Of a stretch of 24,000 nucleotides of DNA, positions 4,204 through 23,520 are shown in pieces. Source of the stretch: an uncultured Clostridia bacterium (GTDB lineage Bacteria > Bacillota > Clostridia > Lachnospirales > CAG-274); contig CAJTVH010000029.1 in assembly GCA_910579745.1 (NCBI GenBank), forward strand, positions 10,438 through 34,437, written 5' to 3'. The notes beneath the pieces are model-generated. The model saw only the letters and a list, made by a program, of their open reading frames with translations, made no database searches and had not been told where the DNA came from. A program made the position numbers and the translations under genes. Each line of letters begins with the position of its first letter. Positions within the stretch are counted from its first letter, which is position 1.

Positions 4204-5237
4204 TTATTCTCTTAAAAATAAAGGTATTTTTTTTATAAACATAGACAATAGCAATGATATTAAATAAATTATCATCGTTATAAACGGAACAGAAATTAAA
4301 GGATTAAAACTATATAGAAAAAAACTTATTTCTTCTGGTACAATTTTTATTACAGCGTGATGAATCAAATATATCCCAAGAGTATATTTAGCTATACTCA
4401 TAAATATATTTTTTAAACTTTTAGGCAATTTAAAATCATATTTGAAAAACAAAAAAAACAGATGACGTTATCATTGTTGTATTTATATTTCCATATCCCC
4501 ATAAAGTTCCATTTAACGTTCCCGTGTTTTTTGATAAATAATATGTGCCTAAAACTGTTACCATAACAGATAGCGTACCTAAAATATATATTATTTTTCT
4601 TTTGTTTTTTGATATTTCTTTCACGGAAAAATAATATCCCAAAAGAAAATATCCAGAATATCCTGATATTAATAAATTTAATATCCTTTGATAATTTCAT
4701 TAGTATTAAACGCTGAAATTACACAGCTTGATATAAGCCATATAATTAAAATATATTCTACTATTTTTATTTTCTCACATATGAGACGATATATTGGTAC
4801 AGCGATATAAAAAGCGAGCAGCTGTAACAAAAATCCCATATGATACTCACCTTTTGCCCAATTAGTAAAAAAGATGTTAAGAATTTCAGTAGTGTCTTTA
4901 TTATCTGATATTAAAGGAACAATGTTTATAAAAGCGTAAATAAAAGACCATATAACAAATATTAAAAGTATTTTAAGAAAGTGTTTTTTAAAAAATTTTG
5001 TTATCCCAAATTCTTTATTAGGATTCAAAATTAGCGCGCCGGAAACCATATAAAAAAATTTACAGGAAATCTTACAGAAGATGCCCACATAATTAAATAC
5101 TTCCAAGAATCGTTATTAATATCTTTTACATAAGGCGCGCACACGTGAATCATTATTACAAAAAACGCGGAAAAAACTCTCAAATATTCAATATATTCTA
5201 TTTTAGATATTCTTGAAGTATTTAAAGCGTTTCTCAT
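4204..5237 (-). pseudogene. Acyltransferase family 3 (OatA/OafA-like membrane acyltransferase), disrupted by at least 3 frameshifts
   Basis: Consecutive minus-strand ORF pieces in three frames read as one protein of about 345 aa: ...RISKIEYIEYLRVFSAFFVIMIHV... / ...KFFYMVSGALILNPNK... / ...LISGYSGYFLLGYYFSVKEIS... / ...YTLGIYLIHHAVIKI... Shift 1 is inside the A7 run 5052..5058; one extra base would give VRFPVNFFYMVSGAL. Shift 2 is near 4680..4700. Shift 3 is in the A5/A8 runs 4445..4458. The likely original start is ATG 5237, with AAGAGGAA upstream. Confidence 0.8.
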
Positions 5238-15196: not shown

Positions 15197-15215
15197 TTTT
15201 TCAGATACGCCCTAA
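15197..15215 (-). repeat. Copy 1 of the dispersed 19-nt motif (TTAGGGCGTATCTGAAAAA in the minus sense)
   Basis: Shares the exact 13-mer GCGTATCTGAAAA with the copies at 19577..19595 and 19725..19743. Intergenic. Confidence 0.7.
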
Positions 15216-15333
15216 TAAAAAATTCATATTTGTCACCAAGTTTTAAAGTTTCTGAACAAATTTAATAATACATCAAATATTTTATAACATATTCTAAAGG
15301 AAAAATAAAATCTAAAAAAGAAAAAATTACTAC

Positions 15334-15432: not shown

Positions 15433-15669
15433 ATGTCAAACAATAATGGTTCAGGTTCAAACAGAGCAACTGTTCCCGAAGCGAGAGCGGCATTAGATCA
15501 GTTTAAATATGAGGTTGCTAATGAAATCGGTGTTCCTTTAAAACAAGGTTATAACGGTGATTTAACTTCCGCGCAAAATGGATATGTCGGCGGATATATG
15601 GTTAAAAAAATGATTGAGGCTCAGGAGAGAGAAATGGCTCAAAAAAATCAGACTCCATCTTCAAAATAA
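15433..15669 (+). CDS. Alpha/beta-type small acid-soluble spore protein (SASP)
   Basis: 78 aa with both conserved SASP blocks (ALDQFKYEVANEIGV and GGYMVKKMIE). Strong RBS: AGGAGGT 7 nt upstream of the ATG. Confidence 0.95.
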   Translation: MSNNNGSGSNRATVPEARAALDQFKYEVANEIGVPLKQGYNGDLTSAQNGYVGGYMVKKMIEAQEREMAQKNQTPSSK

Positions 15670-15716
15670 GATAAAATAATTTAATATATAAAAATGTGCT
15701 AAATATGCACAAAAAA

Positions 15717-17248: not shown

Positions 17249-17267
17249 TTAGGAAGTATCTGAAAAA
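17249..17267 (+). repeat. Copy 2 of the dispersed 19-nt motif (TTAGGAAGTATCTGAAAAA)
   Basis: Identical to copy 1 at 17 of 19 positions. It lies in the divergent cotJA / 17336-ORF intergenic region, 69 nt upstream of the plus-strand ATG. Confidence 0.6.
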
Positions 17268-17335: not shown

Positions 17336-17917
17336 ATGATGATTAAAATAGGAATAATAGGCGATTTTTTAAAAACAGCCGGAATAATATCAAGTATTTT
17401 GGAAAAAAGTTCATTTTCTGTAAAAATAATAAATTATAAACATTTTTTTTCTATAATGCAAAGTAATATAGACTTTCTTATTATTGGAATTTGTTCTCCT
17501 TATACCTCTTCAGATTATATAAATAAACTTCAGCTTGATATACTAATAATAAATGATTCCTCACAAATTACAAATTTAACGAATCCTCCATTTTTAAGCA
17601 ACAAATTAAGCATAGTTTTATTAAATTCTGATAAATCAGAAGAAATAGAACTAAAAACAAAAACGCCGTTTTATGTAATAACTTTTGGATTTAACTCAAA
17701 CGCCACAATAACAATATCAAGCAGAGTATCAGGCGTTAATGATACTTTGCAAATATGTATACAGCGTAATTTGACAACATTACAAAACGTTAAAATTTTA
17801 GAACAAGATTTTTCAATAACTGTCAATAGTAAAAACATAGATGTAATTCTCTCAGCGATAAGCGCGGCAATACTTTCTGGTATAAGTATAGATACACTAA
17901 AAAATATGATAATTTAA
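17336..17917 (+). CDS. Hypothetical protein resembling a stand-alone, degenerate Mur-ligase central (ATPase) domain
   Basis: 193-aa ORF after GGAGGT; the second ATG at 17339 has the better spacing. By-eye similarity to the Mur ligase middle domain: IGIIGDFLKTAG vs GVTGTNGKTTT; DFLIIGICS vs d.avmEvSS; LDILIINDSS vs fdiavfTNl; VITFGFNSNATI vs vitfG...ad; NIDVILSAISAAILSGISIDTL vs NvyNalAAia.a..lGi. The P-loop is degenerate and the Mur C-terminal domain is absent. Confidence 0.6.
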   Translation: MMIKIGIIGDFLKTAGIISSILEKSSFSVKIINYKHFFSIMQSNIDFLIIGICSPYTSSDYINKLQLDILIINDSSQITNLTNPPFLSNKLSIVLLNSDKSEEIELKTKTPFYVITFGFNSNATITISSRVSGVNDTLQICIQRNLTTLQNVKILEQDFSITVNSKNIDVILSAISAAILSGISIDTLKNMII

Positions 17918-19301
17918 AAAAATATAGCTTAAAAAATAATGTAAATTAGCTATTTTGGACTTAAAGCTTTATTAGAATTATATATTCTATCAATAATATA
18001 CGGTTTTTTTATTAAAAAAGGTTTATCAGTAAATAAGATTAATAATCTTTTTTTACTTATTATAAATTTTTATATATATAGATTCAAATTATTAAATCTT
18101 AGGTGGAGCGTTTGAAATTTTTTTGTTGTTATGATGATTTGCTCGGTATACATTTACTAATGTGACCATTGTGTGTCTTAGGCGGTATATAACAAAATTC
18201 GATACAATAAAACAGTTTATAAAATACTAAATAAAATTGCTAAGTTCAGTATATTCGAAAAAAAATTTATAAAGCTTGGAACTATGGAACATAAAGAAAT
18301 TTATATAGAAATCAGTTTTTAAAAATATAAAAAGAAAAAAATACAATACTTTCAATGATATATTAAAATTTTTGATAAAAGTATAAATTAAAATTTTACA
18401 CAATGTTTAAAAATAGCATGAAATTTAAAAATATTAAATTCATATGTATCTGAAACAAGAGCTGGAAAACTTAATATTGGAAAACCTTATTCACTTTATA
18501 TGTATATGACAGATGTTTCTACAACCTTAAAAAGCCCTAAAGTAATAATATAAAAAATGATAAAATTATAGAAAAATTCAATTTAACTAATAATGTCAAT
18601 AAATGTATAATTTTTTAGATAAACCAGATACATATTATATTTATAGCGAAAAATAAAGTAGAAATATATATATTTATGAACGGGATCTTTCTTCGTTTAT
18701 TAAGTTAGATATTGAAGATTTTGTAATATAGGTTTAAGAGAATAAATCCGAAAATTTTTATGCAAACATATGTTTAAACTCAAAAAACAGAGGAGCTACA
18801 GATACTTTTATAGCTTGCTATGATATAATCTGACAGTACTTTACGGCGCTATAAACTCAATTTTCTAAAAACAAAAAAACAGCTTTGTATAAGTTATCAA
18901 TTGATAAGCATTTATAAATTTGTGCCATACAAAGATATGGAAATAAATTTGCTCAGACTTGAAGAAAATATATTTTCCCGTTTTTACCATAAATGTCTAA
19001 ACATTTAAAGTACTAAAAATCCTAAAAAAGCAAAAATAGTAAAAATAACTCATTCTATCTTAATAAGTAGTATTTATAGTTATCCATAAACAAATTTCTC
19101 TTTATTATTCCTCCAAAAAATTACGTTCAATTCTAAATTGTCGTGAAGTTTCCCAAACCCTCAAAAAAACGCAAAGTGTTCTTTTTTTAAACCACTTTAC
19201 GTCTGCTATTAATAAAAAAGTATATTGTAAAATTAGGTAAAAATCAACTTATTTTAACATTTAAAATTTATATTATTTAGTAATTTAAGAATATTTAACT
19301 T

Positions 19302-19346
19302 AAAAACTATATAATCACTATCATTTATACGATAGTGATTATATAG
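19302..19346 (-). terminator. Intrinsic terminator (minus sense) with a perfect 16-bp stem
   Basis: CTATATAATCACTATC (19307..19322), an 8-nt loop, then GATAGTGATTATATAG (19331..19346). In the minus sense it is followed by T5 (plus-strand A5 at 19302..19306). There is no T-run in the plus sense. Confidence 0.6.
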
Positions 19347-19520
19347 TGATAATTCAATTATATATAAATACTCAAGACTTTTGAATATCTTTTGTCATTT
19401 CACACTCCGCAGCAAAAAACTTTACTACTCTCCATTTCTTTTTCACTTAAACCGTATGTTCCTTTTTCTGTCAATTATCTCCATTTTCTTTTTGGTTGTT
19501 ATTGACATTTACATAGTTTA
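19302..19520 (-). ncRNA. Candidate small RNA or leader transcript ending at the 19302..19346 terminator
   Basis: A purine-rich minus-strand stretch that is more G+C-rich than its flanks. It has four GGA/GGAG motifs (plus-strand tcc at about 19405, 19431, 19460 and 19480). It also has a duplicated AAAAAGAAA(A)TGGAGA unit (19429..19443 and 19478..19493). Only mini-ORFs of 8-13 codons are present. I could not identify a convincing promoter. Confidence 0.3.
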
Positions 19521-19576
19521 ATATTCTGACTCTTTAAAATTTAGATTTACCGTTTTAATATCTTTAGACAAATCAA

Positions 19577-19743
19577 CTAAAGCGTATCTGAAAACAAAAA
19601 TACGCACAAAAAATTATAAAAAATAAAACGAAACAGAAAGGCTTTTCTGTTTAATTGAACCGTTTTCGTTTATTTTTTTATAATTTTTTGGATATTTCGC
19701 GTATATAACTGATAGTTTATGACAGTTTTCAGATACGCCCTAG
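19577..19743. repeat. 167-bp MITE-like element bounded by 19-nt inverted repeats (motif copies 4 and 5)
   Basis: The left end is CTAAAGCGTATCTGAAAAC (19577..19595). The reverse complement of the right end (19725..19743) is CTAGGGCGTATCTGAAAAC, matching at 17 of 19 positions. The interior is itself an imperfect long palindrome (AAAAAATTATAAAAAATAAAACGAAA vs TTTTCGTTTATTTTTTTATAATTTTTT) around a central hairpin. The right end overlaps the TAG stop (19740..19742) of the C_GCAxxG_C_C gene. Confidence 0.55.
19610..19652 (-). terminator. Intrinsic terminator for the C_GCAxxG_C_C/GH43/rarA gene string, carried inside the IR element
   Basis: In the minus sense: AAACAGAAA-agcc-TTTCTGTTT followed by CGTTTTATTTTTTATAATTTTTT. 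It lies about 90 nt downstream of the stop at 19740. Confidence 0.6.
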
Positions 19744-20159
19744 TTTTTTGATGTTGTTTTGAAAATAATCTCATCAACAATGTTAATCGTATCTTCTATA
19801 CACCCCTCACAAGTGCGTAAAACTTTTTTAGTATCAACACCTTTTAACTCTTTACAAATAACAGATGAATTCTTAGTTTGAAATTCTTTAACAATCTCTT
19901 TTATAATTTTATATGTATCCGCTTTTGTCGTTGTATTTTTCGTACCCACACTGTTTTTAAGTCCCGCGAGAATAACAGCTCCTGAAACAGCTCCGCACAT
20001 TCCCTGCATATTTCCAAGACCAGACCCAAACCCCTCGGATATTTTAAACATAATTTCCTCATCAATCCCAAAATCATCACTATACGCACACGCGACAGCC
20101 TGACAGCAGTTATAGCCCTTTTTACGATTTTCAATAGCTTTTTCAAATTTACTCTTCAT
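19740..20159 (-). CDS. C_GCAxxG_C_C family protein
   Basis: 139 aa with the family pattern: NCCQAV..., GMCGAVSGA (the GCAxxG motif), and later CKEL... and CEGC cysteines. Confidence 0.88.
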   Translation of the reverse strand: MKSKFEKAIENRKKGYNCCQAVACAYSDDFGIDEEIMFKISEGFGSGLGNMQGMCGAVSGAVILAGLKNSVGTKNTTTKADTYKIIKEIVKEFQTKNSSVICKELKGVDTKKVLRTCEGCIEDTINIVDEIIFKTTSKN

Positions 20160-21674: not shown

Positions 21675-22991
21675 CTATAACTTAATAAAATTAATCCATT
21701 GTTTAATTTTTCTCTCATATCCGTTATCTGACAGAACGTAATATTTTTTATCAGCTACCTCATCAGGCAAATATTGTTGTTTAACGTAATGATTTTCATA
21801 ATCATGAGCGTATTTATACCCTGCTCCGTGTCCAAGTTTAGCGGCTCCTTTATAATGAGCGTCTTTTAAATGATTTGGAATACCTGAAGTCTGAATATTT
21901 TTAACATCGTTCATAGCCTTATCAATAGCAATAATAGCTGAATTACTTTTTGGAGCTGTCGCGACATAAGCAGCCGCCTGTGCTAAAATTATTCTGCTTT
22001 CTGGCATACCTATCATATTTACAGCCTCAAAAGCGGAAACAGCAACTTGTAAAGCTCTTGGATCAGCGTTCCCCACATCTTCTGAGGCGCATATAACAAT
22101 CCTTCGGGCAATAAACTTAATGTCTTCTCCAGCGTAAAGCATTTTCGCGAGATAATAAATAGCCGCGTCAGGGTCGCTACCTCTCATACTTTTAATAAAA
22201 GCGGAGATTGTGTCATAGTGATTATCTCCATTTTTCTCATAATTAAGAGTTCTTTTTTGAATACACTGTTGAGCGGTTGAAATATCAATAAATAATACGC
22301 CATCATCATTTCTTTCCGTCGTTAAAACAGCTAACTCAACAGCGTTTAAAGCTGTTCTCGCATCGCCGTTCGCCATGTCCGCTATAAAGTCGGATGCCTC
22401 CTCTGTCATACTCACTTTTAAAGCTCCAAAACCGTTTTCTTTATCTTCAATACAATTTTTAATTATAGTTTTTATATTATAAAAAGTAAGATGTTTAAGC
22501 TCAAAAATTACACTTCTCGACAATAAAGCCTTATTTACCTCAAAATAAGGATTTTCCGTCGTCGCGCCAATAAAAGTTAATGTTCCATCTTCGACATGTG
22601 GTAAAAGAGCGTCTTGTTGAGATTTGTTAAACCTGTGAATTTCATCAATAAAAAGAATAGATTTCTTACCTGACATTCCGAAAATATTTTTAGCGTTTTC
22701 AACAGTTTCCTTAATGTCTTTTATTCCAGCCGTTGTTGCGTTAAGCTGTACAAACTCACTTTTTGTGGAATTGGCTATTATTTTAGCGAGTGTTGTCTTA
22801 CCTGTTCCAGGAGGACCATAAAAAATAATTGAAGTAAGTTTATCAGCTTTAATCGCCCTATACAAAAGAGTATCCTTTCCTACAATATGTTCCTGCCCCA
22901 CAAATTGTTCTAAAACTTTAGGACGAATTCTTGAGGCGAGAGGCGATTCTTTTTTCATATTTTTTTGCCTTTGATACTCAAAAAGATCCAT
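21675..22991 (-). CDS. rarA: Replication-associated recombination protein A (RarA/MgsA AAA+ ATPase)
   Basis: 438 aa. LASRIRPKVLEQFVGQEHIVG, Walker A GPPGTGKTTLA, Walker B LFIDEIHRFNK, and the conserved C-terminal MgsA block HYDTISAFIKSMRGSDPDAAIYYLAKML. Confidence 0.93.
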   Translation of the reverse strand: MDLFEYQRQKNMKKESPLASRIRPKVLEQFVGQEHIVGKDTLLYRAIKADKLTSIIFYGPPGTGKTTLAKIIANSTKSEFVQLNATTAGIKDIKETVENAKNIFGMSGKKSILFIDEIHRFNKSQQDALLPHVEDGTLTFIGATTENPYFEVNKALLSRSVIFELKHLTFYNIKTIIKNCIEDKENGFGALKVSMTEEASDFIADMANGDARTALNAVELAVLTTERNDDGVLFIDISTAQQCIQKRTLNYEKNGDNHYDTISAFIKSMRGSDPDAAIYYLAKMLYAGEDIKFIARRIVICASEDVGNADPRALQVAVSAFEAVNMIGMPESRIILAQAAAYVATAPKSNSAIIAIDKAMNDVKNIQTSGIPNHLKDAHYKGAAKLGHGAGYKYAHDYENHYVKQQYLPDEVADKKYYVLSDNGYERKIKQWINFIKL

Positions 22992-23520
22992 TTATAAATC
23001 TCCCTTTAAACAGTCAAATCCCTTGGAGTGTATTTAAAAACCAAATATATAAGAAAAATTATAAAAAAGTAAAATAAACTTACAACGTGGTTATTCTACT
23101 TTTTTATATTTTTTTTAATATTTTAATGTTTAAAAAGTAAAAACAAACTTTTATACACTTTTAATAATAATTAGCGAGAATTTTTAGATACACTCTATTT
23201 AAAACTCTAATTTTTTAATAACCTTTTTACTGTATTATATCATTATTACCGAATTACCGCCAAATAACTCTACTATATAAATTTACTTAAACTTATCAAA
23301 CATGTTTATTTAAAAATTTCAGGTAAAAAAATACAATTTTTTCTATCATACCTATAAATATTAAAAATTTTTTTCTTTTGTAAATTCTATGTATTCTTAT
23401 ATTACCTATTTTTATAATCAATATTAAACCTACAATTTATTATATACTACCATAGTTTATTTTTCAATACCAAAATTTTTATACTACTAAATCTACATTC
23501 TATTTCAAAAAAATATTCAT

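Follow-up and report, generated by a model that had tools for sequence, protein, structure and literature searches.

A TA target-site duplication is a hallmark of the IS630/Tc1-mariner superfamily, and RUP of Streptococcus pneumoniae, which duplicates TA, is attributed to an IS630-family element. RUP and SPRITE, also from S. pneumoniae, are small non-autonomous repeats of a Firmicute, as is the element described here, but their sequences are unrelated to it, and its candidate partner belongs to the IS5 family, not to IS630 as in RUP. SPRITE is presented in a 2024 review of prokaryotic MITEs as a mobile repeat that resembles a rho-independent terminator (PMC10969869), whereas terminator-like features are seen in only about half of the present copies. 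The same review describes the Correia elements (CREE/NEMIS) of Neisseria as MITEs of about 100-160 bp with terminal repeats and a TA duplication, which occur in many copies near genes and form long hairpins on transcription (PMC10969869). The present MITE is alike in all these respects, although its sequence and hosts are unrelated. The promoter, IHF-site, and RNase III roles were shown for Correia, and the reported transcript effects are those of Correia. In contrast to Correia, a candidate autonomous partner was identified for the present MITE by its matching ends. The ERIC/IRU repeats of Enterobacteria are imperfect palindromes of about 127 bp that are transcribed, intergenic, often found at the 3' ends of genes, and affect mRNA stability, and the excerpted sections of the review do not mention an autonomous element that matches them (PMC10969869); the present MITE has a TA duplication and a matching IS.

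Among autonomous elements, the closest described relatives are those of the IS427 group (IS427, IS1248, and the ISPpa2 and ISPaes1 series). Those of Paracoccus measure 832-865 bp, end in inverted repeats of 13-21 bp, duplicate 2 bp on insertion, and have two ORFs and a frameshift motif (PMC3281130). The candidate partner described below is similar (871-895 bp, 16-bp repeats, 2-bp duplication, and two ORFs), but the IS427 group has hosts in the Proteobacteria and the present elements occur in gut Clostridia.

The type of element reported here, with its Correia-, RUP-, or ERIC-type behavior, is already familiar, whereas its sequence family appears to be undescribed. It was found in a 24,000-nucleotide stretch of DNA from an uncultured Clostridia bacterium (assembly GCA_910579745.1, contig CAJTVH010000029.1), referred to as the window. 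It is very probably a 161-bp non-autonomous MITE that was moved in trans by an IS5-family (IS427-like) transposase and landed on a TAA stop codon, where its predicted fold points to an effect on the transcript.

A 161-bp hairpin element in the window

Positions 19577-19743 of the window contain a 161-bp element with 16-bp terminal inverted repeats and a TA on each side, laid out as C-TA-AAGCGTATCTGAAAAC ... GTTTTCAGATACGCCC-TA-G (Table 1). The preliminary description, which was made from the letters of the window, had given two inverted 19-nt termini, and these are as written, with 17/19 positions matching. A repeat finder extended the outer arms to 21 nt (19575-19595 and 19725-19745, 90% complementary). 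The 14-nt core of the terminus occurs three times in the window with two or fewer mismatches, compared to 0.2 occurrences expected, and the core of the left terminus is identical to that of IS5-family elements with the same ends. An nhmmer search matched the MITE body with E = 7e-54, a value that is partly by construction since the profile included this copy and three sister copies. As the preliminary description had noted, the good termini of the window all have a TA directly before them (19578-79, 19741-42, 15215-16, and 17250-51). Its statement that the window has no transposase was also borne out, since tblastn with the partner transposases of both clades found none there.

The internal palindrome with a 9-bp hairpin and a T-run, likewise described before, is present in the folded element. 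The minus-strand transcript of 19565-19755 was predicted to form a single long hairpin of -60.3 kcal/mol, compared to -26.0 ± 3.8 for shuffled sequences (z = -9.1), and 0/200 shuffles were equally stable. Its apical stem is AAACAGAAA/TTTCTGTTT, after which the minus strand continues with CGTTTTATTTTTT.

Table 1. Positions in the window of the element, the gene that it abuts, and further copies or termini
Feature	Positions	Strand	Basis or remark
MITE body	19580..19740	n/a	161 bp; non-coding, without ORF; long imperfect hairpin
Left copy of TA target-site duplication	19578..19579		single TA in the empty site of the sister lineage
Left terminal inverted repeat AAGCGTATCTGAAAAC	19580..19595	+	family consensus GGGYGTATCTGAAAAC
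Right terminal inverted repeat GGGCGTATCTGAAAAC (minus-strand reading)	19725..19740	-	
Right copy of TA duplication	19741..19742		first two stop-codon bases of the C_GCAxxG_C_C gene
Internal 27-nt inverted repeat (19607-19633 / 19664-19690) around apical hairpin	19607..19690		arms 93% complementary
Apical 9-bp hairpin followed by U-rich run (from 19607-19630)	19631..19652	-	candidate intrinsic terminator
C_GCAxxG_C_C family gene, 3' end abuts element	19740..20159	-	ORF call, PF09719
TAG stop of C_GCAxxG_C_C gene	19740..19742	-	TA from target plus G, the end base of the element; TAA in empty allele
Decayed copy of MITE family	23018..23197		directly upstream of rarA-like gene (21675-22991, minus strand; start 22991)
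Solo terminus TTAGGGCGTATCTGAAAAA, TA-preceded	15197..15216	-	upstream of SASP gene (15434-15670)
Weaker solo terminus TTAGGAAGTATCTGAAAAA, TA-preceded	17249-17267		upstream of 193-aa ORF (17336-17917)

Insertion into the TA of a stop codon

The terminus had been said to overlap the stop codon of the C_GCAxxG_C_C gene, and it does so in a simple way: the stop is TAG (19742-19740), with its third base supplied by the element. The history of this arrangement could be read from a sister lineage. The sister contigs L108-L113 share the gene order rarA-GH43-C_GCAxxG_C_C, and their DNA is about 90% identical to L001, a contig of the same species as the window (GCA_949489255.1) that was placed by exact-protein look-up and lies in the opposite orientation. 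At the orthologous locus, the sister contigs have an empty site that reads ...AAT TA ATGGATTTG..., with the longer context CCAAATAAT TA ATGGATTTGTTC and also ACACCAAATAAT TA ATGGATTTGTTCAAAAATATTAAAGATGG. On the minus strand of the window, the filled site reads ...AAC TA(161 bp)TA GTTGATTTG..., with the longer context TCAAAAAAC TA / TA GTTGATTTGTCT and also ACATCAAAAAAC TA / TA GTTGATTTGTCTAAAGATATTAAAACGG. The flank beyond the junction is homologous and can be aligned for about 45 bp between the filled and empty lineages. The single TA of the sister lineage against TA-element-TA in the window demonstrates the TA target-site duplication, and the element at the stop codon is an insertion that occurred later than the split from the sister lineage.

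The insertion changed the stop from TAA to TAG and left the length of the protein unchanged. The closest homologue of the C_GCAxxG_C_C protein (P0001) is 96% identical, and both alleles encode 139 amino acids because the element starts with G and so rebuilds the stop. Filled and empty alleles of this kind could be used as strain markers in metagenomes.

More distant relatives, with proteins 73-75% identical, encode a C_GCAxxG_C_C protein that is five residues shorter at its end and is followed by ordinary terminators; the element was absent downstream of the orthologous gene in these relatives. The species of P0003 and P0005 have ordinary downstream regions without the element, which are too diverged for alignment of the junction. 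A related species (L105) has a plain terminator in a 98-bp spacer between the two orthologous genes. For comparison, the same gene interval in the window includes an AT-rich stretch of about 1.65 kb (17918-19576) that separates the 193-aa ORF from the element and contains no ORF longer than 60 aa. In the species of P0002, which has a 75% identical orthologue, all contigs (L101-L104) break 47-72 bp past the gene in sequence unrelated to the MITE, and a different repeat may lie at the same gene end in that species.

Further copies in the window and the species

L001 continues just past the right end of the window, where it contains three further 167-bp units within 6 kb (1121-1287, 1845-2011, and 5042-5208). 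The four full copies in the species are about 90% identical, equal in length, and located within 30 kb of each other. Together with the family of at least 90 stretches described below, these copies make the unit multi-copy. The decayed copy at 23018-23197 is also found in the sister lineage (L108) and is equally decayed there, which identifies it as an older, shared insertion. The two solo termini listed in Table 1 are probably remnants of old copies.

The short same-species contigs L004, L007, L008, and L009 break off within the element, 44-116 bp beyond the gene. Assemblers tend to break contigs at repeats. Many contigs of these metagenome-assembled genomes (MAGs) terminate within a copy, and the family is thus part of the reason why the assemblies are fragmented.

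L001 also contains a 36-bp "micro" element at 4659-4694 (4657-4696 with the TAs) composed solely of the two terminal repeats, TA-AAGCGTATTTGAAAAC-GG-TTGTTTTTAGATGCGCTT-TA. It is located 25 bp past the stop of an HMA-type P-type ATPase gene and may be the product of an internal deletion or a remnant related to excision.

A repeat family in gut Clostridia

Species-representative genomes were scanned for paired termini with the pattern TATCTGAAAAC-N(115-145)-GTTTTCAGATA, and at least 90 genome stretches matched, in dozens of Oscillospiraceae-like genomes. Among the matches listed, most hosts were uncultured Oscillospiraceae, Acutalibacteraceae, or "Firmicutes bacterium CAG:110/124/170" and one was an Enterococcus, and the core-to-core length was 149-152 in 104/108 copies, corresponding to elements of 160-161 bp. 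The scanned loci contained 98 inverted pairs of about 160 bp and a handful of good solo ends, a comparison that is biased because the loci were selected for the pair. In these pair-selected loci, the copies are inverted pairs of near-constant length with TA flanks.

The internal sequences are far more variable. At 75% identity, they separate into at least five clusters, which have a GC content of 26% to 49%; across subfamilies, GC content spans 22% to 54% and internal identity drops to about 43%. The AT-rich cluster to which the element of the window belongs was found only in its own species among the matches listed. The ends are paired in the predicted fold of 93/94 copies, with a mean z of -9.9. 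When RNAalifold was applied to a global alignment of 86 copies, only the terminal helix was recovered, and we make no claim of column-level covariation for the interior, which has diverged too far for its columns to be aligned.

Rfam gave nothing relevant for the whole window and ten loci at the gathering threshold, or for the element at E values up to 10. When the full-text literature was searched for the terminal 12-mers, the only matches were unrelated primers and GGGYGTATCTGAAAAC was not described, and nothing relevant was found in the literature on MITEs in Clostridiales or Oscillospiraceae. The 2024 review names no Clostridia examples (PMC10969869). The repeat family and its likely IS5-family driver have apparently been undescribed so far. 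The result is that the uncultured, Oscillospiraceae-like bacteria of the gut have an abundant family of repeats, with a likely driver in the IS5 family.

A shorter copy with perfect CTAGGGCGTATCTGAAAAC termini, measuring 140 bp core-to-core, is found outside the Clostridia in Candidatus Enterococcus leclercqii (L029, 96-235). The family or its IS may therefore have spread horizontally.

Target site and stop codons

The boundary of the element was profiled with 188 termini, read from outside inward, and has the family form Y-TA-GGGYGTATCTGAAAAC. Positions 1-3 of the terminal repeat are GGG (each in at least 172/188), followed by Y (T in 134, C in 43) and then G in 130 or C in 51. The remaining eleven terminal positions are those of the scan pattern TATCTGAAAAC, and their invariance is by construction. 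Outside the terminus, A is found in 173/188 and T in 174/188, preceded by a pyrimidine in 168/188 (C in 87, T in 81); farther out, the bases are random. The profile fits a 2-bp TA duplication inside a Y-TA-R target. A 4-bp YTAR duplication was considered and ruled out: position -5 is G in 175/188, whereas C and T are about equal at position -8, and a near-invariant G next to the TA would force a near-invariant C on the opposite side, where there is none. Two MITE copies (L046 and L066) have TT...TT flanks.

Next, the three reading frames upstream of 189 termini were searched for open frames of at least 100 codons. In the frame that reads the boundary as TA-G, 32/189 had a stop exactly at the boundary. 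In the frame that enters the terminal repeat, which reads GGG TGT ATC TGA and thus adds Gly-Cys-Ile before a stop, there were 17/189, and in the control frame, which crosses the terminal repeat without a stop, there were 6/189. The excess at stop codons measures target preference and selection together, as one combined figure. Many family members abut stops because TAA or TAG after a pyrimidine is itself a Y-TA-R site, and TA followed by the G of the element restores a stop, which makes the insertion neutral. These counts go part of the way to showing that stop codons are a family-wide landing site, and for the remainder we infer it. The family offers a clean case of a Y-TA-R target that makes stop codons natural, neutral landing sites.

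The counts also carry a warning for annotation, since about a quarter of the termini are located at, or no more than four codons from, the end of a long frame, where the elements recreate the stop or, when entered in the other frame, add Gly-Cys-Ile ahead of a stop. If the 17 long frames that end at the TGA of the terminal repeat (in loci from L011 to L100) are real genes, their C-termini have been replaced by ...Leu-Gly-Cys-Ile-stop.

A candidate autonomous partner of the IS5 family

A motif scan of all loci revealed, in L058, a terminus CC-TA-GGGCGTATCTGAAAAG with an ORF starting MKARRYELTDKEWELIRPLIP 90 bp on. This IS copy is truncated and located 385 bp away from a MITE. Its ORF matched Pfam DUF4096 (PF13340) with E = 8e-26, and the L058 fragments matched the NCBIfam model NF033580, "IS5 family transposase", with E = 1e-30 and 106.9 bits, just below the cut-off of 110. 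Homologues of the ORF are very abundant in gut metagenomes, where one 90% cluster comprises 2,616 sequences.

Complete copies were found in L116 and L117 (2413-3307, 895 bp), with the ends TA-GGGTGTATCTGAAAAG...GTTTTCAGATACACCC-TA. A second IS clade, of about 881 bp, is represented by L127 and has the ends TA-GGGCATATCTGAAAAC...GTTTTCAGATAGACCC-TA; its fused transposase is 49% identical to that of the first clade by alignment, and its right terminus is the right terminus of the "GGGTCTATCTGAAAAC" MITE subfamily. In each clade, the coding region is split into two overlapping ORFs, with DUF4096 followed by DDE_Tnp_1 (PF01609, with PF13586 also found on ORF B). The frame of ORF B relative to ORF A, at an A-run, differs between L116 and L127, being -1 in one clade and +1 in the other. 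This difference could be due to different recoding mechanisms or to assembly indels.

A protein-guided scan of gut metagenome contigs then yielded 43 distinct full insertions with a modal length of 894 bp. They were flanked by TA/TA in 38/43, and just beyond the TA, the left base was mostly Y and the right base mostly R. One IS copy, present in L123/L125/L126 (1916-2796), lies at a non-canonical target and is flanked by CA...CA as a direct 2-bp duplication. Size, the 2-bp duplication, and the two overlapping ORFs agree with the IS427 group, and the partner is best described as an IS5-family element that resembles that group in architecture.

Similarity between the MITE and the IS was confined by BLAST to the 16-17-bp termini. 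Since there is no similarity past the termini, we make no claim that the MITE arose from the IS by internal deletion. Apart from the truncated L058 copy, tblastn with the transposases of both clades found no transposase in the window, the 30 kb of L001, or the genome loci. No intact IS with exactly matching ends was recovered from the species of the window itself, and the matches come from related taxa. In the sister lineage, L109 (2231-2351) and L113 have a related IS-like end, TA-AGGCGTGTCTGAGAAC, 113 bp past the empty site; an ORF that begins with MAAKRYELSDEQWE comes after it, and the contigs break there. This end differs from the MITE termini at 3/16 positions, and its 29-nt sequence had 0 matches in the metagenome scan. 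It may belong to an IS5-type element of the AT-rich lineage's own.

Origin of the element

A course of events that would account for these findings starts with the DDE transposase of an IS5-family IS of about 0.9 kb, which, as the matching ends suggest, would act on the MITE in trans. The transposase is presumed to recognize the 16-bp termini GGGYGTATCTGAAAAC and would insert the element at Y-TA-R sites with duplication of the central TA. The C_GCAxxG_C_C gene was hit after the split from the sister lineage, and the element entered at the TA of its TAA stop. Transcribed as the 3' end of that gene, the element would form an imperfect hairpin of about 75 bp with an apical stem and a U-run, and by virtue of this structure the transcript would probably be terminated, stabilized, or both.

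The identification of the unit as a MITE, already proposed in the preliminary description, agrees with everything found: it is small, non-coding, and multi-copy, it has terminal repeats and a TA duplication, and an IS with matching ends exists in related taxa. The origin proposed there did not hold up. Derivation from, and mobilization by, an IS630/Tc1-mariner-family transposase is compatible with the size and the terminal inverted repeats of the element, and it was suggested by the TA duplication, yet such a duplication is not exclusive to that superfamily, as members of the IS427 group of IS5 normally duplicate 2 bp, too (PMC3281130). All full-length elements recovered with these 16-bp termini and TA duplications code for a transposase of the IS5 family (DUF4096 plus DDE_Tnp_1, with NF033580 just below its cut-off). 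An IS630-type gene was not encountered incidentally in any of the loci, and we consider an IS630 origin highly improbable.

The position at the 3' end of a gene and the hairpin with its T-run would also be expected of an elaborate terminator that belongs to this locus and never moved. This explanation is almost certainly wrong, given that at least 90 copies are found at unrelated loci in many genomes and four intact ones within 30 kb in the species, that the sister lineage has an empty site with its own AT hairpin and U-run terminator, and that a related species manages with a plain terminator in a 98-bp spacer. A unit unique to the locus and conserved in place, the outcome that the preliminary description had set against its own reading, is ruled out by the copy number and the empty site. 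A different view would be that the family is a structured repeat maintained by the host (REP/BIME- or ERIC-like), or a small-RNA family, that spread without an IS5-type transposase and whose conserved ends and fixed length would serve the structure of an RNA or of the DNA. It draws on the constant length of 160-161 bp across subfamilies whose GC content and internal identity vary so widely, on the long hairpin kept in all copies, and on an interior unrelated to the IS. Against it stand the 16-bp terminal identity with a transposase-encoding IS and the same TA duplication and Y-TA-R flanks in both, for which shared transposition is the simplest explanation, as well as the absence of an Rfam match and column-level covariation that is seen at the termini only; nor did a Y1/RAYT-type gene catch the eye in the neighborhood of the copies. 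We regard this view as improbable and favor transposition of the MITE by the IS5-family transposase.

The hairpin as a candidate terminator

The apical hairpin has a predicted energy of -8.2 kcal/mol with its extension and is followed on the minus strand by CGUUUUAUUUUUU, the U-run starting 2 nt after the stem. The 9-bp stem has only 2 G-C pairs, and for this reason it was not flagged by the built-in terminator scan, which instead flagged a hairpin of the left terminal repeat (19605-19582) followed by UUUAGUUGAU. Across the family, a lenient scan found a terminator-like site on at least one strand in 52/94 elements, compared to 22/94 shuffles, and 42/94 elements were without one. It is plausible from these predictions that the element serves as a terminator or stabilizer at the C_GCAxxG_C_C locus, a role that would not be universal in the family.

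The fixed length of 160-161 bp and the full hairpin outlast the divergence in sequence and GC content, and insertions are enriched at stop codons. On these grounds, the family could be a portable 3'-end module kept by host selection across gut Clostridia, or else the hairpin could be needed for IS5-type transposition; we offer this as a speculative and rather unlikely reading.

In the sister lineage, which lacks the element, a 16-bp AT hairpin and U-run lie about 30 nt past the stop, and the window retains the first arm of this hairpin only. Farther along in the AT-rich stretch of the window, a perfect 17-bp inverted repeat at 19306-19347 was scored by the scan as terminator-like on the minus strand.
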